Position numbers and translations under genes: made by a program
Part shown: piece after piece, positions 5,858 to 63,992 of the stretch
Layout: each line of letters starts with the position of its first letter
Position numbering within the stretch: the first letter of the stretch is position 1
The notes under the pieces: generated by a model
Database searches by the model: none
What the model saw: only the letters and a program-made list of their open reading frames with translations
Told to the model about the DNA's origin: nothing
Assembly: GCA_030648835.1 (NCBI GenBank)
Contig: JAUSGT010000002.1
Coordinates: forward strand, 200,081-264,080
Direction: 5' to 3'
Length of the DNA stretch: 64,000 bases
DNA from: Candidatus Moraniibacteriota bacterium
Lineage (GTDB): Bacteria > Patescibacteriota > Minisyncoccia > Moranbacterales > UBA1568

Positions 5858-6469
5858 ATGACAGCGCATTTGAAAAAAGAACATTCACTGGTAATCATCA
5901 AGCCGGATGGCGTACAACGCGCTCTTATGGGGGAGATTATTCGCCGCTATGAACGGACCGGACTGAAACTTGTCGCTTTGAAAATGGTTATTCCTACTCC
6001 TGAAATGGCAACAGCGCACTACATGGTGGGCGGAGAGGAATGGTTGGAGACAGTAGGCAAGAAAGCGGCAGCTGCGTATGAGAAGAAGGGGCAGAAGTCG
6101 CCATTTGCCACGTTTCGTGAAAATGGAGTGGCTATTCTTGAAGCTAACACGAAATATCTTTCATCCGGACCGGTAGTGGCTATGATATGGGAAGGTCACC
6201 AAACTGTCGGTATCGTGAGAAAAATAACCGGCGGGACGGAGCCGCTTTCGAGTGATGTCGGAACTATCCGAGGAGATTTGACTGTTGATTCCTATCAATT
6301 GGCCGATTCTGATCAGCGTTCAATCCGCAATTTGATTCATGCATCCGGTACGCCGGAAGAAGCAGAAAAAGAAATTCCCATCTGGTTCACAGAGAAAGAA
6401 CTGTTGAAGTATCGTTTGATAGCGGAGCAGATTCTCTACGACGTGAACTTGGACGGTATTTTGGAGTAG
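5858..6469 (+). CDS. ndk: Nucleoside diphosphate kinase (long form)
   Basis: LVIIKPDGVQRALMGEIIRRYERTGLKLVALKM NDK signature. Start set at the ATG preceded by a gaggaa RBS rather than at the longer upstream frame. Confidence 0.85.
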   Translation: MTAHLKKEHSLVIIKPDGVQRALMGEIIRRYERTGLKLVALKMVIPTPEMATAHYMVGGEEWLETVGKKAAAAYEKKGQKSPFATFRENGVAILEANTKYLSSGPVVAMIWEGHQTVGIVRKITGGTEPLSSDVGTIRGDLTVDSYQLADSDQRSIRNLIHASGTPEEAEKEIPIWFTEKELLKYRLIAEQILYDVNLDGILE

Positions 6470-6539
6470 ACTTTTTTTAGAACTTCACTTGACAAGCAGC
6501 CCCTTGACAAGGGGGGTTGCTTTTTTTATTTATTTCTCA

Positions 6540-6568
6540 TTGACAATTACGTAAAAATATGATATAAT
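6540..6568 (+). promoter_or_regulatory. Consensus sigma70 promoter TTGACA-17-TATAAT
   Basis: Exact consensus hexamers at optimal spacing in an intergenic region, followed by a strong RBS and a small ORF. Confidence 0.7.
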
Positions 6569-6619
6569 AGGATATAGTTGTTATTCGTTTCTTGTGCTTT
6601 ACCAACCGAGGAGGGCGTC

Positions 6620-6808
6620 ATGTACAGCATTTTGAATTCGCAAGATGTAGCGTCATCCGTGAAAGTTATGGAAAGAGCCACCTTTGGGAGCCTCTTTCAC
6701 CGGAGTTGTGCCTTTTTTGGAATGTGCGGAGCTTTCGGCTGTCAGAAGAGGAGCTCCGTCACCAAGAAGGCAGTAGTGTGCATCTGCCCGCTCAATCGGC
6801 GCCGGTAG
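6620..6808 (+). CDS. Small Cys-rich protein (62 aa), hypothetical
   Basis: ATG 7 nt downstream of a gaggaggg RBS and about 45 nt from the predicted TSS of the consensus promoter. An intrinsic terminator follows. Core reads CAFFGMCGAFGC...VVCICP. Confidence 0.4.
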   Translation: MYSILNSQDVASSVKVMERATFGSLFHRSCAFFGMCGAFGCQKRSSVTKKAVVCICPLNRRR

Positions 6809-6850
6809 CACCCCAAACCGAATACAATATCCCCCACGAGGGAAGAGAAA

Positions 6851-6891
6851 AGCAGGACTTTAGAAACTAAAGGTCCTGCTCTTGCTTTTTT
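6851..6891 (+). terminator. Rho-independent terminator (agcaggac...gtcctgct stem + T-run)
   Basis: 8-bp GC-containing stem followed by cttgctttttt. Confidence 0.5.
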
Positions 6892-6910
6892 ACAGCTTTT
6901 GTAGTATAAT
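6882..6910 (+). promoter_or_regulatory. Sigma70-like promoter TTGCTT-17-TATAAT
   Basis: Perfect -10 with a good -35 at 17 nt. It overlaps the preceding terminator T-run. Confidence 0.5.
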
Positions 6911-7029
6911 GTCGCAATCAGGAGTTGCGAAGCTTCTGATGTAGTGGTTCTTTAGTGTCTCACAAAGAAAAAGTGGGGCGAACTTTGATTCTTAATGGGA
7001 GAACGGAGTTGTTTAATAAAAAAGGTTGT

Positions 7030-7227
7030 ATGCATAATCCGGCATGCCAGTGCTTTGCTGGTCTTGCAAAGTGCCGCGGGGCTGTCGGAAGTGGTGAATG
7101 CAAGCCACCGGCGAAAGTGAGAGTGGATTTGGGGTTGACTCTCGCGAACGTAGATGTGGGGGATTTCACCAAGCTTCTCGAAAAGCATGGTGGTTGTATC
7201 CCTGTCCGGGGTTTCTGTTCGAGGTAA
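7030..7227 (+). CDS. Second small Cys-rich protein (65 aa), hypothetical
   Basis: ATG in frame within ORF 6955-7227. Cys pattern CQCFAGLAKCRGAVGSGEC...GGCIPVRGFC resembles the upstream small protein. The RBS is weak. Confidence 0.3.
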   Translation: MHNPACQCFAGLAKCRGAVGSGECKPPAKVRVDLGLTLANVDVGDFTKLLEKHGGCIPVRGFCSR

Positions 7228-7311
7228 AACAACAAGGAGGAATCAGTGCTGTCAGCGAACGGCACACCGAAGGCGACCAAACAACAACTGGCCGCCTTTA
7301 AAATTTTCCAT

Positions 7312-7339
7312 TTGACAGATTTTGAGGAAACTCTATACT
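7312..7339 (+). promoter_or_regulatory. Sigma70-like promoter TTGACA-16-TATACT
   Basis: Consensus -35. The predicted TSS coincides with the ATG of a 19-codon ORF (MKNIAQVLSVKGLLLLKKG), and a 12-bp stem plus T-run follows at about 7405-7475. Confidence 0.4.
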
Positions 7340-7534
7340 AATGGTATGAAAAATATCGCCCAAGTTTTGAGTGTCAAGGGTCTCCTTCTTCTCAAGAAAG
7401 GATAACTTGATGCTGGGAAAATATTTTTTAGAAAGAGAACCCGGCATCAAGACCGGGATTTTTGTTTTTTAACAACAAAAAAGTCTGTCAAATTCCAATT
7501 TTCCATCGAGTGTTTCATGGTGAAGGAGAAAGCA

Positions 7535-7699
7535 ATGACTGAGCAACAAGAGAGGGATCTGGTTTTGGGGCTGCCACCGGAGCAATTGATGGCAAATTTG
7601 CGCCTTGTCCAGGAACGTTTGGATGGTGGCGATAGTGTCAACCCGAACTGTAGTGATACGCGGGTGGAGGATACGGAGGTTTTGAAAGAACAAAAATAA
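7535..7699 (+). CDS. Small acidic hypothetical protein (54 aa)
   Basis: ATG 7 nt downstream of an aaggag RBS. No recognisable domain. Confidence 0.35.
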   Translation: MTEQQERDLVLGLPPEQLMANLRLVQERLDGGDSVNPNCSDTRVEDTEVLKEQK

Positions 7700-7870: not shown

Positions 7871-7941
7871 CGGAGTGTAGTATAGTGGTAGTACGCAAGG
7901 CTGGGGGTCTTGTAGTCCGGGTTCGATTCCCGGCACTCCGA
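7871..7941 (+). tRNA. tRNA-Pro (anticodon GGG)
   Basis: Manual cloverleaf: acceptor cggagtg/cactccg, D-arm gtat/gtac, anticodon stem caagg/tcttg with loop ctGGGgg, T-arm ccggg-ttcgatt-cccgg, discriminator A. CCA is not encoded. Confidence 0.85.
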
Positions 7942-7965
7942 CATTTAAAGTAGCGGGCATGGGGG

Positions 7966-8098: not shown

Positions 8099-8296
8099 AT
8101 GAATCTGCAGACGTATAAAAAACTGAAGCAAGAAACTGAAGAAACAGTTGTGGCTTTCGGCGAGAACTCTCTTTCGGAGCTTGTGGCGTTGGAGCGTGAG
8201 GCTGAAACGGCGGAAGGAGAATTTGTGGCGGAGCTTGAAGCGATCAAAACAGAAGAGCTTCGAAAAAAACTCAAAGGTATTCCGGCTTCCGAATAA
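8099..8296 (+). CDS. Small acidic hypothetical protein (65 aa)
   Basis: ORF only. No RBS and no recognisable motif. Confidence 0.25.
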   Translation: MNLQTYKKLKQETEETVVAFGENSLSELVALEREAETAEGEFVAELEAIKTEELRKKLKGIPASE

Positions 8297-8300
8297 ATTT

Positions 8301-9371
8301 ATGCATGAGGAACACGAAAAAATTGTTTTGCCAAACGAAGCTGCGCCGTTAGCGGAAGCTTCTCCGGATTACCCGCTGGAAAGTCACGAAGGAGGTATGC
8401 AAGGAGTACTTACTCGGCTCCAGGAACAAGGGAAAGCTCTTTTGAAAAAGATAGATCTTGATGGGAATGTTCACCTTGAAAAGCTAGGGCTTGTCGATAA
8501 TCCAGAGGCACAAAAAGCAGCAGAGAGGTATGATGCTCACAGGCGAACGATGATGGATGGAGTTCGCGAGAAGATAGTTCTTGCAGCCACACTCATGATG
8601 CTGACAATGGGGGCTGGAAAAGTGTTGGGGGCAGAGCCTGGAGATTTGGAAGAAGGATTCCAATCTACTCATGCAGAGCAGAGTGTTGTGTTGGAAGATG
8701 AAGTTATGGATACACAGACTGCCCAGCCGCCACTGTCGGAAAGTATTGAAGAAACGGTACGCATGGGGGAAGCGGGTATAGAAAAGAATATGGCAGCAAG
8801 TGTGGTAATGGAAAAGGCCGATGGAACCTTACAAAAAACTGAAACTTTTGCGAAGGAAAAACCGTTGTCTACTGACGAAAAAGAATTTCGGAAAATGAGT
8901 CAAGCAGTCTCCGATATTATGAGTGCCTGTATGGGACTACAGAAAGATAGCTGTCTGGCGACGGTTACCGGCGCGGCTATGAAACATATAGTTTTGGACA
9001 GCCTTATTCCTTTCAAACGAGGGGTGACCAGTCTCAAAGAAGCGGCTGAAGGGGAAAAAATGGAAGCTGGTGAGCGCTTCGGGAAGGTCATCAGCGGTAT
9101 TTTTGATCTCTTGACGGATGCGGTAACTTTGCAGATGGGAGGAAAGGGGGTCATTAAATTGGCCCAGCTCTACCGGGCGTATCAAGGAGTAAATACCGCT
9201 ACAGCAGCCTATACGTTTTACGTAGAGAATAAGAAAGACGTTCATGCTGCCCTGCAAATTATTTTTGGTGGTGCTTCTCAAGAACGGCAGGCGGTAGAGA
9301 ATACACTCTTTACGCTCGAAAAGGTAGGTCAGATAAGTGGAGAGAAATCTGCGCCTGTTCAGATAAACTAA
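8301..9371 (+). CDS. Hypothetical protein (356 aa)
   Basis: Long ORF starting at the internal ATG of the 8148 frame. One hydrophobic segment (ATLMMLTMGAG) and no recognisable domain. Confidence 0.5.
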   Translation: MHEEHEKIVLPNEAAPLAEASPDYPLESHEGGMQGVLTRLQEQGKALLKKIDLDGNVHLEKLGLVDNPEAQKAAERYDAHRRTMMDGVREKIVLAATLMMLTMGAGKVLGAEPGDLEEGFQSTHAEQSVVLEDEVMDTQTAQPPLSESIEETVRMGEAGIEKNMAASVVMEKADGTLQKTETFAKEKPLSTDEKEFRKMSQAVSDIMSACMGLQKDSCLATVTGAAMKHIVLDSLIPFKRGVTSLKEAAEGEKMEAGERFGKVISGIFDLLTDAVTLQMGGKGVIKLAQLYRAYQGVNTATAAYTFYVENKKDVHAALQIIFGGASQERQAVENTLFTLEKVGQISGEKSAPVQIN

Positions 9372-40979: not shown

Positions 40980-41798
40980 ATGAATACTCATGGAACAGAC
41001 CGCTCGGTACCGACTATGCAACAGGTGAAGCAGCTGGGGATTTTACTTGGATTCATCCTGGAAATTGTGACCAGGATCGTTACACGCTATTTCTTCGCCT
41101 TGAACTCTGACGAAGCGAAGGCTACGCTCCAGAACAAAGGAGCCCTTTCCAAGAAAATCAAGGTTGCGCTTGCGCCGGTGTTTATGATGGCAGTCGATGA
41201 ATATGCTGCCCAACGAACGTATTGGGAAGGCATCTATCTCACTCACTACGGCATGGCTGCGGATTTCGGCGAAGTAACGGTGCCGGAGAAACCGACAGTC
41301 GGCAAGTGGCGCCTCATTTTCATTCTGAAGGGATTGACGATGAATCACGCGGCGGCCATGTACCGAAAAATTCTTGCGGCCATCGATCCACCGTGGCAAC
41401 TGGTACAGTATATCGATGATTTGGACGCGCAGATTCCTTACAACATTCGTACTTCGGCAGAATCCTATGCTCTTTGGGTACGGGATGGGCAAGAGGCTGA
41501 CGAGGAATTTCGTGCTCAAACGACCAGCCAAGCCGATCCGAATCAATTGATTGGTGTCACGCCGCTCGAGCGTCTCGTTCATGGAGCAGCCCATTTTGTT
41601 GAAACCAAACAACACCTCGACGAGAAAGGGATTACTATCTGTTCAGGTTCGCGCAATGCGGATGGCTGCGTGCCTTGCGTGTGCTCGTATCCGGACAGTC
41701 GCGAGGTGTGCGTGTTTTGGTACAATCTGGGCTATTCGTTTTCCGCTGGCGGTGTCCGTCGAACAGTAGCGCTGCCGCAGGCGGCGCAGACAGCTTAA
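40980..41798 (+). CDS. DGR target protein (variable C-terminal ligand-binding region)
   Basis: 272-aa ORF whose last ~40 codons are the VR (SRNADGCVPCVCSYPDSREVCVFWYNLGYSFSAGGVRR). N-terminal hydrophobic segment. Confidence 0.75.
   Translation: MNTHGTDRSVPTMQQVKQLGILLGFILEIVTRIVTRYFFALNSDEAKATLQNKGALSKKIKVALAPVFMMAVDEYAAQRTYWEGIYLTHYGMAADFGEVTVPEKPTVGKWRLIFILKGLTMNHAAAMYRKILAAIDPPWQLVQYIDDLDAQIPYNIRTSAESYALWVRDGQEADEEFRAQTTSQADPNQLIGVTPLERLVHGAAHFVETKQHLDEKGITICSGSRNADGCVPCVCSYPDSREVCVFWYNLGYSFSAGGVRRTVALPQAAQTA
41645..41766 (+). repeat. DGR variable repeat (VR)
   Basis: 122 bp that differs from the TR at 16 positions, all where the TR has A and the VR has T or G. Confidence 0.8.
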
Positions 41799-42106
41799 CC
41801 TCGATTCTCAACTCTTTTTCTCTTTTTTCCCCGCTGTGCGCGTGCGCGCAGCGGGCTTTTGTTTTTGTCTTTTTCCATCCTTTTCTCGAAAGCTTTGAGA
41901 AGTTGTTGTATACTACAGAAGGTTGTTAAGCCAGTCTTGCTTGGGCAAGATGATGGTTTGCCAAGAACTGAAACTGCCTGTGAGTATTTACGCATAGATT
42001 TTTCATGGTAGGAAATGATGCGACACAGCGCTCGTGACCACGAGGAACACAGATGCTCTGGCGACAGAGGTTCGGTGATAGGGATGGATACTCACAGTAA
42101 AGATGG

Positions 42107-42228
42107 AGGTTCGCGCAATGCGGATGGCAACGTGCCTTACGTGAACTCGAATCCGGACAATCGCAAGGTGAACGTGAATTGGTACAATCTGGACAATTCG
42201 AATTCCGCTGGCGGTGTCCGTCGAGAAG
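42107..42228 (+). repeat. DGR template repeat (TR)
   Basis: Non-coding cognate of the VR with A at all 16 variable positions, rich in AAC/AAT codon-equivalents. The overlapping ORF 42015-42281 is probably not a gene. Confidence 0.8.
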
Positions 42229-42249
42229 TTTCAACACAAGAACATCCCG

Positions 42250-42624
42250 CTAGAGTGCGGGATTTTGTGTCAGGTATTTGATCCAACCATTCGTCATTTT
42301 GGAAGTTTCAACGAGGAGAGCAGCTACCTCGATGTATGATTTTTCAGGGATGACCTTTTGTTCATATTCTATGCGCACCAGGTGTTTCAGGATTTCCAGA
42401 GAGACGCGTACATGCTCGAGTATTTCTCGTTTCTGATATTTCTGCGTGAGCGAGGCGCGAAGGATACCGCTCATGGTTTCTAGCGTGAGATGCTCAATAA
42501 CCTGGTGGATACCGAGTTTATCTCGTTTGGGAATCTTGTGTCCAATTTGGTACAGAGTGGCATATACTTGTTTGATACTATGAACAATCGAAATATCATT
42601 ACTCCGAAGGGGGGGGGGTAACAC
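42250..42624 (-). CDS. avd: Avd-like accessory variability determinant (four-helix-bundle family)
   Basis: 124-aa helical protein between the TR and the RT. Size and placement are typical of DGR Avd, though it is divergently oriented. The N-terminal PPP is encoded by a C10 tract. Confidence 0.55.
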   Translation of the reverse strand: MLPPPLRSNDISIVHSIKQVYATLYQIGHKIPKRDKLGIHQVIEHLTLETMSGILRASLTQKYQKREILEHVRVSLEILKHLVRIEYEQKVIPEKSYIEVAALLVETSKMTNGWIKYLTQNPAL

Positions 42625-42715
42625 TAGAGGAAATTTTTTTCATGATATTATCAGTGTAGCAAATCTTCTCGCCGCTTGGAAAGAGTTTCGGAAGGGAAAA
42701 AGGAAAAAAGGTGAT

Positions 42716-43672
42716 GTGGCTTTGTTTGAATTTCAACTGGAAGACAACTTACTGCAACTGCATCAAGAGCTGGCTTCCCAGACCTACAGGCACGGTCCCT
42801 ACGAAGGTTTTTATGTTTCTGATCCCAAGTTGAGGCACATTCACAAAGCTAGTGTGCGCGATCGAATTCTGCATCAAGCGATTTTCCGTGTGCTATATCC
42901 GATTTTTGACGCGCATTTTATTTATGATTCGTATTCATCGCGCGTTTCCAAGGGTACCCACTTTGGCGTGAAGCGCCTCTTGCAAGCCTGTCGCAAAGTA
43001 AGCGAGAATTGGAAAGCTCCGGCGTACGCGCTGAAATGTGATATACGCAGGTTTTTTGATTCGATAGATCATGCAATTTTGCGCAAGCTCGTCGTAAAGA
43101 AAATTACCGACCATAAGACGCTATGGTTGATCGATATCATTTTTGCAAGCTTTGAGAAAGAAAAAGGGAAAGGACTGCCGCTCGGAAATGTCACCAGCCA
43201 GCTTTTTGCCAATATCTATCTCAATGAGCTGGATCAATTCGCGAAACATACATTGAAGGCGAGGCATTACTTCCGTTATTGCGATGATTTTATTATTGTT
43301 CACCGCAATCGGATTTTTCTTGAAGAAGCATTGGTAAAAATAAGAGCCTTTGTTTCTGAAACATTGTTTTTGGAACTGCATCCTTATAAAGTGGAAATCC
43401 GCAAAGTCAGTCAGGGAATCGATTTTCTGGGCTATGTCATTTTGCCACACCGGACAGTCGTGCGGATGGCTACCAAGAGCCGTCTACTACGAAAGTTAAA
43501 CGATGCCCGAAAAAACTTTCGGACCGGGAAGATAACAGGAGAGACGTTTGGAAGTATTATACATTCTTACCTCGGCGTACTTTTACACTCACGGAACCGG
43601 AGAATAAGAAGATGGGTATGGAAGTTACGCGAGTTGACACAAAGCGGAGATAAAAATGTAAAGTGGCGGTGA
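42716..43672 (+). CDS. DGR reverse transcriptase
   Basis: RT motifs DIRRFFDSIDH (A), LPLGNVTSQLFANIYLNELD (DGR-type motif 4/B) and RYCDDFII (YxDD). Conserved N-terminal residues continue in frame upstream to about 42647 without a canonical start codon. Confidence 0.85.
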   Translation: MALFEFQLEDNLLQLHQELASQTYRHGPYEGFYVSDPKLRHIHKASVRDRILHQAIFRVLYPIFDAHFIYDSYSSRVSKGTHFGVKRLLQACRKVSENWKAPAYALKCDIRRFFDSIDHAILRKLVVKKITDHKTLWLIDIIFASFEKEKGKGLPLGNVTSQLFANIYLNELDQFAKHTLKARHYFRYCDDFIIVHRNRIFLEEALVKIRAFVSETLFLELHPYKVEIRKVSQGIDFLGYVILPHRTVVRMATKSRLLRKLNDARKNFRTGKITGETFGSIIHSYLGVLLHSRNRRIRRWVWKLRELTQSGDKNVKWR

Positions 43673-56063: not shown

Positions 56064-58160
56064 TTGTTTGGTAATAAGCAAAAAAGAAAAACTAAAATGG
56101 GTGGTTTCATGGAGTTTAGCCGCAAGTTGATGGGGAGAGCCGGAGATGAAAAATCTTCCGGTGGTTTGGCGTTGTCTGGATTGAATCCTCAGCCCGGAGA
56201 AATAATTTTTACCGATCGACACGTGACAATGCCAAAAAAAGAAGTGATTGCTGAAACTGCCGTAGCCAAGGCTGCTTTGGATTTGGTCAAGAGAGTGAAT
56301 GGAAAAAACCATACTGTAGCCCCAGCTTTCCGTTTGGGGACCGGAGAAGTTTTTGCTTCTTCGCAGGGGGAGGATGGTGTACGGAAAAATATTGCTTCGC
56401 CACCGGTTCAGCCGGCAGTGGAGAAAGTAGCGGTTTCAAAAATGGATGTCAGCGTAAAGGAAGACGCTGGCTTACAGCAGGCTACCCCGAGTGACACAGG
56501 AGAAAATATTGGTAGGGTTAAGGAAGTATCGGAAGACCTAGGGAGTCAAGGCGCTACTATGAGAGTACACACGGAAACTGGAAGTATAAGGGGTAGTAAA
56601 AAAATAACGATGGAGCATCCGTTTCAAGCGGTTGAGAAAAGCCATTTACGTAGGAGCGCCAAGCATTTGAGAGAAGGAGATTTATCTGATCAGGTGAGAG
56701 AAGGGTATCTGAAACAACTTACGAAAGTTCAGGCGAGAAAACGGACGGCTACCAAAGAGGATGTTACAAAAGCGAGATCCTTACGAAAGGGTATTTTAGG
56801 AAGTATTGAGCAAAAAAAGATCGATACCGCAGATCAGGCTCAAAGAGAAGAGGAAGAACACCGAGTAGAGCAGGAAAAACTTGCTCGCCTTGAAGCTTTT
56901 AAGAATGAGAATCCGGACTATTATCAAAAGTACGAAGGGGAGATAGCAAAACTCGAGCCGGCCTTCGCTCAAGAGTTTGAAGCCAGCAGGGAGGCTTACA
57001 AGACGTGGGAGCTTTCTTTGAAAAGAAGTGATGGTAAGCTGTTGAAATCTCAAGAGGAAAGCCCGGAGAAAGCAGAAGCGCAGGCTCGTATGGCTGCAAT
57101 GGATGTGCGTTTTCACAAAATGGCAGATCTTGTAGAGGAATTCAATAACCTTGATACGCGCCTTCCGGAAGATGGTCTCAAAGGGCTACTGCTTCTTACG
57201 GAGATGCGCGCGTTGGAAAAAGAAATGCCCAAGAATGCCCAGGAGAAAAAGAAAAAGGTTCTTGACAAACAAAAAGAGATGTATGGGAGCGAGGAACCGA
57301 ATGTGGAACTTATTGAAAAAGGGCATATTCAGGTACTTATCAAGAGAGAGTTGGAAGTGTTGAAAAGAAATTGCGAAAAAGTTCGCGAAAGAGAGCTATT
57401 CATGACAAATAATTTCCCTAACATCGGACAACTGGAAGACCACATACAGTCATTGGCAGATTTGGCTGATTCTTTCGATGATGAGACACCGATGGCGGAG
57501 GTGGAAAAAGCGCTAGAAGAGTTGAGAACACTCGAAAACATGGCTTTTAGTGAAACGCCTCCCGAAAGAGGTAAACCTTTTGGAAAAAAAGCCGGAATAA
57601 AAAGATTGCGGGATGACAAAGAAGTTGCTGGGGGTGCTAAGGGGGAGAGAAAATTTGTGAGAAATCGCGGGGATAAACGAGATCTGGCGTTGGATGAAAC
57701 AGGCGAAGGCGCGAGTCAAGAACCGATTCCGGACAAGCAAAAGAGCGATATGTTACCACAAGGAAATACAGGTGATACGGCTGATGCGGCATCTGATATT
57801 GAGACGTTCCCTATGGATGAACTACCGTCATTCGAAACGGTCGTCTCGGAGAGTGAACGGCAGGGGATTGTTGGAGAGTTACAAGGATTTATAGATGGAG
57901 GATTAGTTGATATTGTCGATTATTTGAAAGAGACAGGAAACAAAGAACTGGGAGCATTGTTAAATAGTAAAAGCCCAGAAGACATAAAGGTGATGGACGA
58001 AGTAGTTCAACCTCTTCTGGACACGATTAGCACGAGTATGCTGAATGTTGCAATCGCATGTGGGGAGAGAATAAAATCTGCAACGCCGGATATTGTAGTT
58101 TCTGCTATTCATAAAAAAGGAACCGATTTGTTAATCGAGGCACAGATGCGATACCTATGA
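56064..58160 (+). CDS. Large charged coiled-coil hypothetical protein (about 690 aa)
   Basis: Long ORF, E/K-rich, no recognisable domain. Start is uncertain (56064, 56097 or 56109). Confidence 0.55.
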   Translation: MFGNKQKRKTKMGGFMEFSRKLMGRAGDEKSSGGLALSGLNPQPGEIIFTDRHVTMPKKEVIAETAVAKAALDLVKRVNGKNHTVAPAFRLGTGEVFASSQGEDGVRKNIASPPVQPAVEKVAVSKMDVSVKEDAGLQQATPSDTGENIGRVKEVSEDLGSQGATMRVHTETGSIRGSKKITMEHPFQAVEKSHLRRSAKHLREGDLSDQVREGYLKQLTKVQARKRTATKEDVTKARSLRKGILGSIEQKKIDTADQAQREEEEHRVEQEKLARLEAFKNENPDYYQKYEGEIAKLEPAFAQEFEASREAYKTWELSLKRSDGKLLKSQEESPEKAEAQARMAAMDVRFHKMADLVEEFNNLDTRLPEDGLKGLLLLTEMRALEKEMPKNAQEKKKKVLDKQKEMYGSEEPNVELIEKGHIQVLIKRELEVLKRNCEKVRERELFMTNNFPNIGQLEDHIQSLADLADSFDDETPMAEVEKALEELRTLENMAFSETPPERGKPFGKKAGIKRLRDDKEVAGGAKGERKFVRNRGDKRDLALDETGEGASQEPIPDKQKSDMLPQGNTGDTADAASDIETFPMDELPSFETVVSESERQGIVGELQGFIDGGLVDIVDYLKETGNKELGALLNSKSPEDIKVMDEVVQPLLDTISTSMLNVAIACGERIKSATPDIVVSAIHKKGTDLLIEAQMRYL

Positions 58161-58224
58161 TAGAAAAAATATAAGGTGTATTATAGGAGAATAAAAGTAG
58201 ATACAAACTTATTTACGAACTCAT

Positions 58225-60624
58225 ATGTTGATTGAAGACGCAAAGAATCAGATCATAGCACGCTCGCTCGCGGCTGCAGAAAATGCCAGAAAATCTCGGG
58301 CGAGTGGGGCAGGAACACCGGGTTTGCCAGAACTCACACCAAACGGACAGGGAGATGTTGTAGTTGATGTCGTAAAAGTTGCAGATGGAGAGAAACCAGA
58401 TGTTGATGTGGAAAAGAATACGAGGGTACGGGAACCCAGAGCTAAAAAGCCAACGGCGGGTGCTCCAGCTCGGCCAGATTTACACAAAGAAGTGGGAGAA
58501 GTTCCGGATGCCAGGAAAGAGGCATTTCTGACGGTTTTTACGAAAAAATTTGAAGAGTTGAAAGAAAAAATATCGACAGCAGATGGCAGGACGTTGAGAG
58601 GTGTGAAACGCGGCAAAGAAGGCGACGTTTACAGGTTTTTTAATCTTGATGACTTTGCCGATTATTTCAATAACTTGAATGGGAAGAGGGAAGAAGCGGA
58701 ACGTGTGGAAGGAATTGAAAAGATAGTTGTGGCGGAAAGAGAACTGGGAGAATTATATAGGGCCCGGTGGGAGGCGCTAAAAGGAAAAGGAGCAACATCG
58801 GTAGATAGACAAGGGCGAGAAAAGAGACCTTCGATTCAAGAATCAGTGAGTGATGGTGACAAGTGGTTACAGGAGACGAAAACGTTGATACCGGAGTTGG
58901 GCAATCTGGATGCTTTGAAGAAGCTGACAGTTTTTATAGGTGAGGGCGCAAGAAGAACAAGAAGTTTTGATTTTCCCGCTGGGTTTACATATCTTTTAGG
59001 AAAAAATGTTCCAGAAAATATTCGGGAACGATTCAGAACTGAGAAGAGTGACCTTATGAAGCTCTGGCAGGTGCAGGTGGTGAAGGTTCTCTTCGATCAG
59101 CCGGGTGTCGAATCAGGCTTCGCAAACTTTTTGCAAGGCTCATTTCAAGAACTGAAAGATAAAAAATTGAGGAAAACAGATTTTATTGAAAGGTGTGTTC
59201 AGAGACTGGGCCTCAAAGAAAAGGAGCTGGAGGATTTAGCAGAGCCAAGACCCTGTAAAGCTTTACAGGATGAGCTTCACGAACTTTATAATAAAAACTT
59301 CGCGGCTATTGAAGCGGCACAGCAGGCAAAAGGGAGTGGCGGAAAACCAGAGGATAAAAAACTTACCAATGAGGAGTTGTTTGCAGAACTGGCCAACAAA
59401 TTGAAAGTGGACGGAGTCTTTAAGAAGGGCGAGGAACCGTTACTGATCATAAGAACTCTTCCTTTGGAAAATGCCCCTCCAGAGATAGGTATAGAGTATA
59501 GAGATGACAGTGGGACTTGGAAGAAAGGAAAAGTTACGCCAAAACTCGTGCAGGGATTTTTGAAACAATTGAAGACAAACTTCGGCTGGACTTTGGAGAA
59601 AATGATCGTGGTACAGCCAGCGGCGAAGAAAAAACGTTCGGGTGTTTCTAAAGGTTTGCCGATTACCCCGGATGAAGCTGCCAGGAGAGCTCTAGCTTCT
59701 AAAAAAGCTTGGGATGAACAATATGAAAGAAATATGGCAGCTCAGAAAGCAGAGGCTGAGGAAAAAAGAAAAGCAGGAGCTGTAAAGCCAGAGCTGAAGT
59801 CACCAGTGGATGAGCAAGAGAGCGTACGGGGAATGAATGAAAATAGAGAAATCAAGGAAGCGATATTGAAAGCAGGAAATTTTAGTGAATTATTTGAGAC
59901 TTTAAACGGTGTAGAAGGGATTCAAGGGGAAGAGCGATTTTTCGAGTCGGTGTATCTCATCGCCACTATCAATTCAGTCAGGGAGGGGACTCTTGAAGTT
60001 AACTCTGTAACGAGAGGGGCTAGCCTGCGCGACAAGGTAGGAGAGCTCTTGAAAATAGAGAGGAAGGCACAAGCGGCACTGAAGATATTGGGGGGTATTA
60101 TCGAGAAAAAGAAAACATGGGCGGAGAGATATTTTAAAAAAAATCCTGATACAATAACACAGGGACAATACAATCAACTGGTTTCCTTCCTTGACAGATT
60201 ATTGGATTCCACCACGAGCGCTCTTACAAAAGATCCTAAGAACAGAAAAGTAATTTACGCTCTCAAGGAGGCTCGCGAGGTCAGATTTATGCCGGAAGAA
60301 CCAGTAAAAGGGCAGCCTGTCGTTGTGCCTGAACAGTTAAAACCGCAAGAACGGACGTATGAAGAACTGGAGGCGCAATTGCAGGAAGACGGCACCGATC
60401 TTCTGATAATGGGTTCTTTGGGCAAGGCTTTCCATGCCATGAAGACAACGTCGGCTGAACTTGCCAAGAATAAAGAACAGTATTGGGAGGTTATCAAGAC
60501 TGAAATGTTGAAAAACTTCGGAAAATCCCTGAAGGGAATTCAGAAGAGGTTTGGCTGGATTGATGCGGAATTGAATGACTTTTCCGAGAAAATCATCCGC
60601 AAAGCATTTGAGAAGTATCTCTAG
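58225..60624 (+). CDS. Large charged hypothetical protein (799 aa)
   Basis: Long ORF, no recognisable domain. Confidence 0.55.
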   Translation: MLIEDAKNQIIARSLAAAENARKSRASGAGTPGLPELTPNGQGDVVVDVVKVADGEKPDVDVEKNTRVREPRAKKPTAGAPARPDLHKEVGEVPDARKEAFLTVFTKKFEELKEKISTADGRTLRGVKRGKEGDVYRFFNLDDFADYFNNLNGKREEAERVEGIEKIVVAERELGELYRARWEALKGKGATSVDRQGREKRPSIQESVSDGDKWLQETKTLIPELGNLDALKKLTVFIGEGARRTRSFDFPAGFTYLLGKNVPENIRERFRTEKSDLMKLWQVQVVKVLFDQPGVESGFANFLQGSFQELKDKKLRKTDFIERCVQRLGLKEKELEDLAEPRPCKALQDELHELYNKNFAAIEAAQQAKGSGGKPEDKKLTNEELFAELANKLKVDGVFKKGEEPLLIIRTLPLENAPPEIGIEYRDDSGTWKKGKVTPKLVQGFLKQLKTNFGWTLEKMIVVQPAAKKKRSGVSKGLPITPDEAARRALASKKAWDEQYERNMAAQKAEAEEKRKAGAVKPELKSPVDEQESVRGMNENREIKEAILKAGNFSELFETLNGVEGIQGEERFFESVYLIATINSVREGTLEVNSVTRGASLRDKVGELLKIERKAQAALKILGGIIEKKKTWAERYFKKNPDTITQGQYNQLVSFLDRLLDSTTSALTKDPKNRKVIYALKEAREVRFMPEEPVKGQPVVVPEQLKPQERTYEELEAQLQEDGTDLLIMGSLGKAFHAMKTTSAELAKNKEQYWEVIKTEMLKNFGKSLKGIQKRFGWIDAELNDFSEKIIRKAFEKYL

Positions 60625-60632
60625 TTTACCGT

Positions 60633-63600
60633 ATGGCATCCAAAGAATTCGATATACTAAAAGCGATTCAAGCAGGGGCGAAGACCGGGAGCGAAGAGCT
60701 CGAGGGCCAGCTTGGCATTGGTGGAAAAGACAAGAAAAAATATTCACCAAAATCCCGTAAGTCCGCTAGAGCCGCTGTAACGTCTGAAATTGCTCCGGGC
60801 ATTCCCGTTACCCCGGTTGTTGTGGAACCGATGTCGGCATCGGCAGATGTCATTGTACCCAAAAAACTGAGAGGGCGGCGGAGACAAGGTGGAGGAGATA
60901 AAGGAAAAAAATCAGAAAGTATAACTATTTCTTCGGCGATGCAAGCTCCGGCCTTGCCCAATGTTGTTGTGGCGCCTGATTCAGAAGCAGCAAAATTGAA
61001 CCGCGTTTCTCCCATTGATCTTTCGGAAGTGAAGAACGGAAAAGACTTTCAATTTGCTGACAAAGATGGAAGCGACTTCATTGTGAGAGCGGATAATGAA
61101 ACACCGGGCCATTACCTTCTTCTTTCCGGAGATGGAAAACGAGTTTTAGGTTCTTTTGGCGAAGGCCATATAAGGGGAATAATAGAAGATGAAAGAGTGG
61201 AAGCGGTTGTTGAGCCAGTAGCATCAGCTTCAATGGAACCAGTAGCAATGGCAGAACCAGAACTGACAGTTGAACCTGCAATGGCTACTATCCCGAAAGC
61301 AGTTATCCCGGACGCCATCACCAAGCCTTTCATATCTACTCCAGAAGTGGAAGCGTCTCTCAATGCGGGTCTAAACGCTTTGGAGAGAGGCGAAACATTG
61401 CGTTTTGTCGGGAAAACCGGAGATATTTATAGGGTGAGCAAACGAGATAGTGTTCATTATAATTTGACACAGCCTGATGGGAGGATTGATGCGGTTAATG
61501 AGATATATTTACGGGAACAAATGGAGGGGAACTGGACGCGTTTGGAAAACGAAGAACCGGAACTGCCCAAGGGAACCACTCCGGAAAATCCTTCCGTTTC
61601 TCCTACTGAGAGAGAAAAGCTTGAACAGAAAATTGCCGCCTTGAAAAAAGAGGTGGAAGATCTACGCAAAGAATATGTAAAAGCAGATTACGAAGAGACG
61701 AATGCGTGGGCGAGGGTGAGGAAGTTTTTCGGAAAAAATTTGAAAGGTCTCGGTGAGAGAGACTGGCAGGAAAAACAATATAATAAGAAAGATGGTAATT
61801 CAGATGGTGTGTACATGCAGGCATTGTATCAGAACAAACTGGTTGATTTGAAGAATGCAGAGCTGTCTTTGATCAAGGAGCGCGCAGCCGCAGGCGATGG
61901 ATGGAAAAAAGAAATGGGCGATATGATCAAATACTTCGGTGTGGATGAAGTGACGAAGTTGATAGACGCCCGCACACAGTATCGGGCGGAGAATCAGAAT
62001 TTTCCGACGAAAATACTCGACGCATTTGGGGCTTTGGGAAGAGAGTATAACAAGCTTTCCATGAAACAAAAATTGGCTATTACTGCTGTCTGTGCAGCTG
62101 GGACGATTGGGCTTACTTTATCCGGTGGCACGGCGGCCGGTGCGATGGCTGGTTTGATCATGGGCGGAAAAAGATTTTTTGCGACTGCCGGACTGACGGT
62201 CGGTACGGAGGCCCTGCTTGATAGTTCCCGGACAAGGATGCGTAGCAAAGAAATGGAAGAAGAAATGAAGACGCTCGAAAAAGAGATGTCCGAAAAAGGA
62301 TTTGCCCACCTCGAAGCTGTTATCAAGAATAAAGCGCTCTCGATCGATGATGAGCTCCAGAAGGCGAAACTGACGAAGTTGCTCCACAAGGCCGGTGCAT
62401 TGACTGTTGGTTTGGCTGTCGGTTCCGGTTGGCTGACGCAGGTAGTGATGGATCATTTTGGCGGGCATGAAGCCGTCGATTGGGTGAAAGAGCACGCTAA
62501 AAATCTTATGGGAGATTATACTGTGATCCATCCCAAAGCAGAATTTGCCGCAAAAATGCCGATAGATCTTGATTTAGATTCAGACGCGCGGGACAGCGCT
62601 ATGGCCGCGGCCAGCCAAGCTCCAGTGATGTCTGGAGGTGTTCCTGACCCAGGTCTTGAACTGGATTCAGACGCGCGGGACAGCGCTTACTTGGCAGCGG
62701 ATAAAGGATCAGCGTCGCCTGGTAGTGCTTTTATCACAGGGAACGAATCAGAGTTGGACATGCGGGACAGCGCCCAAATAGCAGCAGGCCAAGCAGAGAC
62801 AGTTCCTGGGAATCTTTCCGGTACAGGCGATGGATCAGAGTTGGACATGCGGGACAGCGCTCAAGCAGTAGTAGAACAAGCGAAGGAATCACCTAGCAGT
62901 GCTTTTATCACAGGGAACGAATCAGAATTGGATATGCGGGCTGACAATCCACTAGCAAGTGAAACGGGCAATGGATCAGAGTTGGATATGCGAGATAGCG
63001 TTCAGATTGCGGCTGCCACAGCCGCTGAAGCGAGGCCTAGCATCATCAATGAGTTTATCAATCAAGACATCACCGTGAAGAAAGGCGATTCAGTATGGAA
63101 AATTGCCGGCAGGTTGGCGAAAGAACTTGGGATAGACGAAAAAAGTCCTCAAGGCACGCGTTTCATCAATGCCTTGAAAAATCAGTATGGGGATGTCTTA
63201 CTGAAAGAGGGATCTGTCATCAATCTTGCAGATAGCGGTATAGACAAGGAATTTGTCGAAAATGCATATGCAGATGCCACTACCTTGTCACCGGAAAAGA
63301 TGGCGAGTATCGCGGCCAACGATGTGAAGCTTCGGGAATTTGCGGCGGCTCATCCGGATGTCACGCTGACGGACGGCAAAGTGGATGATATTTTACATGG
63401 GAATGGAGCGGATCCGGCGGGGAAAACAAATCTTGGGTGGGAACATGGAGATGATGAAACCATAAACTATAATGATCATACGGTGAGAGAAACACCATCG
63501 GAAGAGAATATGGACGATCTTGTTTCTGATTCATCATCTGATACTCAGGCGGAATCCAGTGGAGCAGCCGCGTCGGAAAACGAAACGGTAATTGTAACTC

Positions 63601-63992
63601 GCGATGAGGGATCGGTAAAAAGTGCTGACATAGAATATGAGCGGGATATTCGTTTGGGGAAAGCGTACGATATCAATGTATATAAGGAGTATTTTGTGCA
63701 AAATCCGGAAGCATTCGGAGCATATAAAAAACTGGGAGAAGGCTATCTGGGGTTCATTTCGCAGGGCGATGCGAGCGCGATGAGATCTTTGGGAGGCAAG
63801 ACATTCCGCGAGTTAGGGAATATTGTGAGCGATCCTTTGGGGAGATTTGTGGCGTTGGCCAGGGAAGTCTATGGGAGTAAACTCGGTCTGCCCGGTCCGA
63901 AAGAAAAAGTGTATGAATATGTGGCGCGCATGGCGATGATCGGTATGGAACATCCGGAAGGCAAACTCATTCGGATTCCGCAGTCGATATGA
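60633..63992 (+). CDS. Giant membrane-anchored hypothetical protein (1119 aa) with acidic tandem repeats and a LysM-like segment
   Basis: Central TM helices (AITAVCAAGTIGLTLSGGTAAGAMAGLIMGG), repeats of (G)SELDMRDSAQ / LDSDARDSA, and a LysM-like ITVKKGDSVWKIAGRLAKELGID. Confidence 0.6.
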   Translation: MASKEFDILKAIQAGAKTGSEELEGQLGIGGKDKKKYSPKSRKSARAAVTSEIAPGIPVTPVVVEPMSASADVIVPKKLRGRRRQGGGDKGKKSESITISSAMQAPALPNVVVAPDSEAAKLNRVSPIDLSEVKNGKDFQFADKDGSDFIVRADNETPGHYLLLSGDGKRVLGSFGEGHIRGIIEDERVEAVVEPVASASMEPVAMAEPELTVEPAMATIPKAVIPDAITKPFISTPEVEASLNAGLNALERGETLRFVGKTGDIYRVSKRDSVHYNLTQPDGRIDAVNEIYLREQMEGNWTRLENEEPELPKGTTPENPSVSPTEREKLEQKIAALKKEVEDLRKEYVKADYEETNAWARVRKFFGKNLKGLGERDWQEKQYNKKDGNSDGVYMQALYQNKLVDLKNAELSLIKERAAAGDGWKKEMGDMIKYFGVDEVTKLIDARTQYRAENQNFPTKILDAFGALGREYNKLSMKQKLAITAVCAAGTIGLTLSGGTAAGAMAGLIMGGKRFFATAGLTVGTEALLDSSRTRMRSKEMEEEMKTLEKEMSEKGFAHLEAVIKNKALSIDDELQKAKLTKLLHKAGALTVGLAVGSGWLTQVVMDHFGGHEAVDWVKEHAKNLMGDYTVIHPKAEFAAKMPIDLDLDSDARDSAMAAASQAPVMSGGVPDPGLELDSDARDSAYLAADKGSASPGSAFITGNESELDMRDSAQIAAGQAETVPGNLSGTGDGSELDMRDSAQAVVEQAKESPSSAFITGNESELDMRADNPLASETGNGSELDMRDSVQIAAATAAEARPSIINEFINQDITVKKGDSVWKIAGRLAKELGIDEKSPQGTRFINALKNQYGDVLLKEGSVINLADSGIDKEFVENAYADATTLSPEKMASIAANDVKLREFAAAHPDVTLTDGKVDDILHGNGADPAGKTNLGWEHGDDETINYNDHTVRETPSEENMDDLVSDSSSDTQAESSGAAASENETVIVTRDEGSVKSADIEYERDIRLGKAYDINVYKEYFVQNPEAFGAYKKLGEGYLGFISQGDASAMRSLGGKTFRELGNIVSDPLGRFVALAREVYGSKLGLPGPKEKVYEYVARMAMIGMEHPEGKLIRIPQSI

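Follow-up and report, generated by a model that had tools for sequence, protein, structure and literature searches.

Our analysis revealed two small cysteine-rich genes that stand alone between ndk and a tRNA-Pro gene on a contig of a Candidatus Moraniibacteriota bacterium. We hold, with moderate confidence, that they encode abundant cytoplasmic metal-binding small proteins, whose divergent types are exchanged as cassettes between lineages. The genes lie in a stretch of 64 kb (in the following referred to as the window; all coordinates are positions in this window) and are named after their open reading frames (ORFs) ORF1, encoding pep1, and ORF2, encoding pep2. Loci of relatives are given as L-numbers and database proteins as P-numbers. 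Each gene appears to form an independent unit with its own promoter, Shine-Dalgarno (SD) sequence and intrinsic terminator. Both products would be abundant, soluble and basic proteins of the cytoplasm, in which clusters of cysteine (and histidine) residues may hold a metal, most likely zinc or possibly an iron-sulfur cluster, and whose function might be to bind nucleic acid or a partner protein. The regulatory scaffold is conserved, and the divergent coding types would be swapped laterally, probably through the conserved flanks.

Both ORFs are, on comparative evidence, real protein-coding genes because their substitutions follow the pattern of coding DNA. Ratios of non-synonymous to synonymous substitution rates (dN/dS) were calculated by the Nei-Gojobori method. 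Between the window and L068, ORF1 shows a dN/dS of 0.24 (13 synonymous and 13 non-synonymous changes, p=0.002) with 4/8/14 differences at the three codon positions, and its dS of 0.40 is that of NDK in the same pair (dS 0.405, dN/dS 0.025). ORF2, compared between the window and L066, has a dN/dS of 0.045 with codon-position differences of 14/11/39 (p=7.6e-9). For the type B versions of the two genes, which are described below, we obtained ratios of 0.11 (ORF1, L066 versus L067, p=8e-6) and 0.24 (ORF2, L002 versus L069, p=2.5e-4). Shifted frames gave ratios >1. The wobble-matched antisense frame of ORF2 has a higher ratio and contains a stop in L066, and that of ORF1 has a similar ratio but is interrupted by stops in both genomes; the coding signature is confined to the frame that is preceded by the SD sequence. 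In the DNA alignment of the window with L002 the gaps within ORF1 measure 33, 3 and 3 nucleotides (nt), all multiples of three. Two competing frames, an antisense ORF of 106 amino acids (aa) at 6960-7280 and an overlapping ORF of 92 aa at 6592-6870, were rejected as coding.

The islet of small genes is limited upstream by the intrinsic terminator of ndk (6494-6527, + strand), a 12-bp stem with a T-run that is kept in L066, L067 and L068; ndk itself (5858-6469, +) encodes NDK. The initial annotation had described a consensus promoter, a ribosome binding site, a 62-aa ORF and a terminator as a compact expression unit, and all of these elements are present. The putative promoter P1 (6540-6568, +) consists of TTGACA (6540-6545), a 17-nt spacer and TATAAT (6563-6568) and scores 12/12. 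It has an extended -10 element with TG at -15/-14 (TGaTATAAT) and a T-rich stretch just upstream. No other perfect TTGACA-N16-18-TATAAT occurs in the 64 kb, in which 0.01 would be expected, and the -35 and -10 hexamers and most of the spacer of P1 are unchanged across five loci. Since ftsZ and rpsL are also preceded by TTGACA-type sites, this promoter type appears to be in use in the genome. The SD sequence GAGGAGGG (6609-6616, +) keeps its AGGAGG core in four of five loci at a fixed distance from the ATG. ORF1 extends from ATG 6620 to the TAG ending at 6808 (+) and encodes a type A pep1 of 62 aa with an isoelectric point (pI) of 10.0 and five cysteines (C30, C36, C41, C54 and C56). The unit is closed by the predicted terminator T1 (6851-6892, +), whose hairpin (6851-6880, 11-bp stem, -16.4 kcal/mol, z -3.1) precedes a U-run and is almost unchanged in five loci. 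The U-tract of T1 holds the -35 hexamer of the next promoter, i.e. the second promoter overlaps the first terminator.

This second putative promoter, P2 (6882-6910, +), is composed of TTGCTT (6882-6887), a 17-nt spacer and TATAAT (6905-6910). Its -35 hexamer matches the consensus at three of six positions and was missed by a simple promoter scan. P2 is identical in the window, L002, L066 and L067, as well as in L068 up to the end of its contig, and L072, which has no pep1, shows the same layout after the ndk terminator (TTGTTT, 17 nt, TATAAT). The 5' untranslated region (UTR) of about 90 nt begins with a stem-loop (6917-6940, +; 10 bp, -11.8 kcal/mol, z -4.3) that is kept, with changes, in L002, L066 and L067 and may play a role in mRNA stability. 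The second unit had been proposed to consist of P2 and a 65-aa ORF, which would begin at ATG 7030. Promoter and frame stood up to our analysis, but the start is most likely TTG 7009, because relatives keep the first cysteine upstream of ATG 7030; a GGGAG lies 7 nt upstream of this TTG. With this start ORF2 covers 7009-7227 (+, TAA at 7225-7227) and encodes a subfamily A pep2 of 72 aa with a pI of 9.2 and the N-terminal motif C7-x5-C13-x-C15-x6-C22-x8-C31-x-P33. Unit 2 also has a 3' hairpin of its own (7269-7299, -12.7 kcal/mol, z -3.3), absent from the earlier description, which together with the following UUUAAAAUUU makes up the predicted terminator T2 (7269-7310, +). Equivalent hairpins in L066, L002, L069 and L072 (z -3.0 to -6.4) pair with differing stem sequences, which indicates compensatory change. 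Between the stop of ORF2 and T2 there is a further element (7234-7265, +), AAGGAGG and a small hairpin GUGCUGU/ACGGCAC, which is kept in the window, L066 (1940-1975) and L067 (2378-2412); an AAGGAG at this position is also found in L002 and L072 (866-880 in the latter). A 31-aa ORF at 7246-7341, a possible client of the AAGGAGG, was rejected as coding, its frame not being conserved.

ORF2 belongs to a family that is represented in the protein database by P0001 (L066), 76% identical to the window protein. An exhaustive profile search with ORF2 and its relatives against 1.84 billion representatives returned 12 matches, 10 of which are small proteins of 65-108 aa. The other two, the large repeat proteins P0011 and P0016 (Tudor repeats, GH43), were regarded as spurious, with matched regions outside the cysteine motif. 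Members of the family are basic proteins of 65-85 aa with the N-terminal motif C-x5/6-C-x-C-x6-C-x8-C-x-P. In an alignment of 13 members C13 is invariant, C22 and C31 occur in ≥90% and C7 and C15 in most members, and P33 is nearly invariant. Conservation in pep2 centres on this N-terminal cysteine cluster, and the C-terminal half differs between subfamilies. Subfamily A (window, L066, P0008 and P0012 to P0014) continues with ...VRVDLGL...F.KLLKKHGG(R/C)IP..GF, and subfamily B (L002, P0006, P0007, P0009, P0010 and P0015) has a different C-terminal half without the GG-RIP tail. Further variants, C and D, are carried by L067 and L079. A hidden Markov model (HMM) trained on subfamily A, with the window and L066 excluded, detects the window ORF2 with E=2.7e-31. 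Searches by blastn, tblastn and HMM over 64 ndk loci of Moranbacteria and Patescibacteria recovered L002 as the sole relative, no relatives were found in viral contigs, and a scan of JGI metagenomes with subfamily A gave none either. The L002 versions of both genes have already been deposited as 'hypothetical protein'. Judged by these searches, the pep2 family is undescribed and has no counterpart in the curated libraries searched. The initial annotation had left open that the peptides might lack homologs and conserved cysteines; homologs do exist, and within a given type the cysteines are kept.

The pep1 family is a narrower orphan family than that of pep2. Type A comprises the window and L068, whose P0004 is 81% identical to ORF1, has the same length of 62 aa and keeps all five cysteines. 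Type B occupies the syntenic position in L002, L066, L067 and L079 and carries ...EKAGWWSL.NWHC..PMRRVL...WICPxCQHRKYPPLMK. Position, UTR, SD sequence, ATG and terminator are common to both types, as is a small number of in-frame motifs (E[KR]A, SL, C, M, ICP), and the types are probably homologous. C30 and C56 are invariant and the remaining potential ligands depend on the type, with five cysteines in type A and H-C...C-P-x-C-x-H in type B. The cysteine spacings that had been noted as shared between ORF1 and ORF2 are literally present but do not reflect homology: BLASTP gave no alignment between the two proteins, hhalign a probability of 0.2%, and the shared pieces GAxG and C-I-P are conserved in neither family. 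By these measures the two genes are unrelated.

The genes occupy a conserved neighbourhood. NDK of the window is 93% identical to that of the metagenome-assembled genome (MAG) RIFCSPLOWO2_12_FULL_48_12 (L002), and its close relatives come without exception from Moranbacteria MAGs. The conserved order is ComEC, MBL, NDK, pep2, (MscL, L28), M50 protease, S12, S7 and EF-G, with pep2 directly 3' of ndk in every placed locus except L085, where it follows a transposase. Because L072, L073 and L080 to L083 carry pep2 directly after ndk without an intervening pep1, the latter looks like a promoter-ORF-terminator cassette inserted after the ndk terminator and ahead of the pep2 promoter. Transposase genes of the insertion-sequence type (rve) adjoin the ndk/pep2 locus in two relatives (L073, 902-1726; L085, 83-961), which fits a recombination-prone spot.

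The coding types form a mosaic within this constant frame. In pairwise DNA comparisons identity amounts to 80-90% in P1, T1, P2 and at the 3' end of unit 2, and in pairs from NDK clade I (window, L068, L002 and L067) the ORF bodies share 30-50% nucleotide identity where NDK shares 77-83%. NDK clade II comprises L066, L080, L073 and L083; the two clades are about 58% identical, yet each of them contains pep2 types A and B. L066 has a clade II NDK and an MBL that is 76% identical to that of the window, yet its pep1 DNA is about 88% identical to the L067 version and its pep2 72% identical to that of the window. The identity of L066 to L067, about 0.6 up to the 3' end of ndk, jumps there to about 0.87. 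We thus find discrete divergent types (A and B of pep1; A, B, C and D of pep2), whose distribution is discordant with the NDK phylogeny, and selection within each type is purifying (dN/dS 0.045-0.24). Because of this purifying selection and the distribution across NDK clades, the types are, as far as such patterns tell, old functional alternatives that have been laterally exchanged between lineages. The exchange probably took place by recombination in the conserved flanks.

Several properties of the proteins are consistent with a cytoplasmic metal-binding function. All members are basic (pI 9-10), the maximum Kyte-Doolittle mean over 19 residues is at most 1.1, and no signal peptide, transmembrane segment or hydrophobic N-terminus was found in any pep1 or pep2 member. 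The best-conserved residues are the cysteines, joined by histidine in type B of pep1, and four Cys/His ligands at conserved positions are present in pep2 (C13, C22 and C31, with C7/C15 in most members). Among small proteins of this kind, CPxCG-type proteins have been studied in Haloferax, and bL36 and bL32 are small C4 ribosomal proteins. Like zinc-finger and zinc-ribbon micro-proteins, pep1 and pep2 are basic, soluble, 60-80 aa long and encoded by stand-alone genes, their Cys/His residues are best conserved, and type B of pep1 carries a knuckle-like W-I-C-P-x-C-x-H motif. Unlike these, they have no match to a zinc protein in Pfam, NCBIfam or PDB, pep2 has C-x-C and single cysteines in place of two CxxC knuckles, and both families are confined to one clade of Moranbacteria and occur as divergent, exchangeable types. 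Small metal-binding proteins had been offered as one of the earlier readings, and they fit best among these.

A number of observations weigh against this assignment. The two peptides hit no Pfam or NCBIfam family at E values up to 1, neither a RiPP (ribosomally synthesized and post-translationally modified peptide) precursor family nor a small zinc-binding family, as had been suggested for them; Pfam searches with the 13 family members gave stray EGF matches in one member only, and profile searches of the PDB gave chance matches with E >0.4. AlphaFold2 models from alignments of four sequences reached predicted local distance difference test (pLDDT) values of 48 and 50, which is too poor for a fold assignment. 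Paired CxxC knuckles are lacking in pep2, and the one CPxC of pep1 type B is the sole such pair across both families. Subfamilies A and B of pep2 detect each other only weakly, with E values of 0.05-0.5 in 9358 ORFs, though the hits are reciprocal best. The HMM of pep1 type B does not detect the type A pep1 of the window, and the link between these types, drawn from synteny, the shared UTR, SD sequence and terminator and the few in-frame motifs, is weak. Finally, discrete and laterally exchanged allelic types would sooner be expected of genes for conflict or recognition than of a zinc protein with a housekeeping role. In the literature on small cysteine-rich or zinc proteins of the Candidate Phyla Radiation (CPR) we found nothing relevant.

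An unlikely alternative is that pep1 and pep2 are unmodified conflict or interaction proteins, such as host effectors, anti-phage or anti-defence factors or a toxin/immunity pair, that diversified in an arms race. From what is generally known of the CPR lifestyle, this bacterium is presumably episymbiotic. The deeply divergent types within one locus with conserved flanks, their discordance with NDK and the low identity of the clade I ORF bodies relative to NDK would all be expected of such genes, and the transposase genes beside the locus in L073 and L085 are in line with this. Polymorphic small-peptide loci with conserved flanks are known from the comC and agrD pherotypes and from bacteriocin/immunity islets. 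The locus described here resembles them in having discrete old allelic types at one position, discordant with the phylogeny of the flanking genes, and breakpoints in the conserved flanks. It differs from them in that no receptor, processing or export gene adjoins it and in that the products are basic proteins of 60-90 aa without leaders. Moreover, neither the peptides nor their relatives matched PADLOC or PHROG, signal peptides and transmembrane segments are missing, selection within types is strongly purifying and not positive, and pep2 occurs without pep1, so that there is no obligate pair. A type I toxin-antitoxin system is not indicated either: a hydrophobic membrane peptide was not found in view of the low hydropathy given above, and within the units the antisense strand offered only a 9/12 promoter-like site (6931-6903, -) and no terminator closing over either ORF.

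A related and rather unlikely idea takes the whole stretch from ndk to tRNA-Pro as a cassette islet, in which the promoter and terminator modules would serve as recombination handles for swapping deeply divergent alleles of strongly expressed small cysteine-rich proteins between lineages. The islet would then be a recognition or conflict system of a symbiont of ultra-small size. The products could then be effectors against a host or competitor, a pherotype-like signal or precursors for a remote maturase, and such a system would be without counterpart among described families.

It is improbable that the two ORFs encode RiPP or bacteriocin-like precursors, one of the readings in the initial annotation; such precursors would depend on modification enzymes from other parts of the genome and on subsequent export. 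For subfamily A this would imply a long N-terminal leader ending in K-H-G-G and a short core like R/C-I-P-x-x-G-F. The ORFs are indeed small, cysteine-rich and strongly promoted, the conserved C-terminus 'GG-[RC]-IP-xx-GF' of subfamily A, with Gly-Gly followed by a short tail, is of a form known from precursors, many members end in an aromatic residue, and the discrete types and their lateral exchange resemble pherotype or bacteriocin loci. However, the absence of modification enzymes next to the genes, already recorded in that annotation, was borne out on a larger scale. Our Pfam scans of the window took in about 50 of the 60 larger ORFs, and among these there was no radical-SAM, YcaO, Lan or ATP-grasp enzyme, no maturase or protease of a precursor system and no C39/ABC exporter; RiPP enzymes and exporters were likewise not found in the few kb of called genes around the relatives. 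None of the NCBIfam or Pfam precursor models matched, including those for SCIFF (sactipeptide/ranthipeptide), NHLP and Nif11-type leaders, lanthipeptides and others. In contrast to the usual layout of a leader followed by a variable cysteine-rich core, the most conserved part of pep2 is its N-terminal cysteine cluster and the variable part is not rich in cysteine. Subfamily B does not have the GG-RIP tail, and pep2 sits at a stable position in the core genome and was not seen in viral contigs. A secreted bacteriocin finds no better footing, since neither a Sec nor a double-glycine leader was present and the neighbourhood held no candidates for immunity or export. A precursor function lacks every defining feature that is open to testing, and the GG-RIPxxGF tail is the sole positive hint.

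We regard it as very unlikely that the frames are young or decaying ORFs without function that ride on conserved regulatory DNA, an explanation that would apply mainly to the type A ORF1. The window pep1 has only one close relative and is not recognised by the type B HMM; the CPxC-x-H end seen in type B is gone from it, owing to substitutions among which is a change of AAG to TAG. Against this, length, start, SD sequence and all five cysteines are the same in the window and L068, and the dN/dS of 0.24 (p=0.002) was reached while dS equals that of NDK. That the units are genes for non-coding RNAs (small RNAs or RNAs like 6S, RNase P, signal recognition particle (SRP) or transfer-messenger RNA (tmRNA)) with incidental ORFs is effectively refuted: strong promoter-terminator pairs do occur in this intergenic region next to a tRNA gene, folding of the transcripts is more stable than that of shuffled sequences (z -3.6 and -2.5) and the UTRs are better conserved than the ORF bodies, but Rfam searches, in which SRP, 6S and RNase P RNAs had been named as targets, gave only tRNA-Pro (7871-7941) over the whole window at the gathering threshold and chance-level snoRNA-type matches of at most 20 bits over 6400-7600 at E values up to 10, ARAGORN found no tmRNA, the codon-position and dN/dS signature is present in the SD-preceded frame only, indels inside the ORF are multiples of three, and family members were found at the protein level where the DNA alignment is lost.

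Some further features of the region were observed in addition to the two genes. At the same position downstream of ndk, other Moranbacteria (L013, L031/L023, L032, L033/L034, L035 and L047) have unrelated small ORFs with an SD sequence and 4-6 cysteines, e.g. MTDSKCLYENGCQSCIAMCAVGKCPRMQG... in L033/L034. By eye these are similar to pep1 and pep2, but the similarity is not significant and they were rejected as relatives. A third unit (7312-7472, +) follows T2 and consists of a promoter TTGACA-16-TATACT and a 19-aa ORF, MKNIAQVLSVKGLLLLKKG (7346-7405), with four consecutive leucine codons. Counterparts in L002 (5658-5815) and L079 (642-800) are 87-90% conserved, and among the three genomes the leucine codons show synonymous differences only. 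The stop of this ORF adjoins a 12-bp helix (7406-7417 / 7440-7451), which competes with a 5-bp terminator hairpin (7440-7457) and U-run. The third unit has the look of a transcription attenuator of the leader-peptide type, a surprising feature for a CPR bacterium that lacks leucine biosynthesis. Downstream of it lie a variable small ORF (7517/7535-7699) and the tRNA-Pro(GGG) gene (7871-7942).

The window genes with Pfam matches are housekeeping genes (FtsZ, ComEC, NDK, M50, S12, S7, EF-G, EF-Tu, L3, L4, adenylate kinase, MAP, TIM, GAPDH, a Mur ligase, MreB and others), as well as a diversity-generating retroelement (DGR). Several ORFs have no Pfam match, among them one of 407 aa directly after tRNA-Pro (8148-9371, +) and three large ones at 56-64 kb (698, 799 and 1119 aa; 56064-63992, +). 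The DGR (40980-43672) is complete, with bAvd (42250-42624, -), a reverse transcriptase (42716-43672, +), a template repeat (42107-42224) and a variable repeat (41645-41762) at the 3' end of the ORF at 40980-41798. The repeats are 118 nt long and differ by 16 mismatches, all at template A. A diversification of the small ORFs by this DGR was rejected, as the two repeats at 42.1 and 41.7 kb have no similarity to 6.5-7.3 kb.

Genomes of CPR/Patescibacteria are tiny and full of unannotated small ORFs. Two such ORFs emerge here, from sequence data alone, as genes under selection with textbook sigma-70-type signals, and ORF2 defines a syntenic five-cysteine family that is missing from the curated libraries searched. 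A candidate locus for a non-coding RNA or RiPP can be struck off the list, and the start of ORF2 has been corrected. If the products are indeed abundant metal-binding factors, they might count among the components of the reduced CPR cell that are specific to this lineage. If, on the other hand, the mosaic of types reflects conflict or recognition, the locus would offer a compact handle on the interaction of these symbionts with hosts or competitors.

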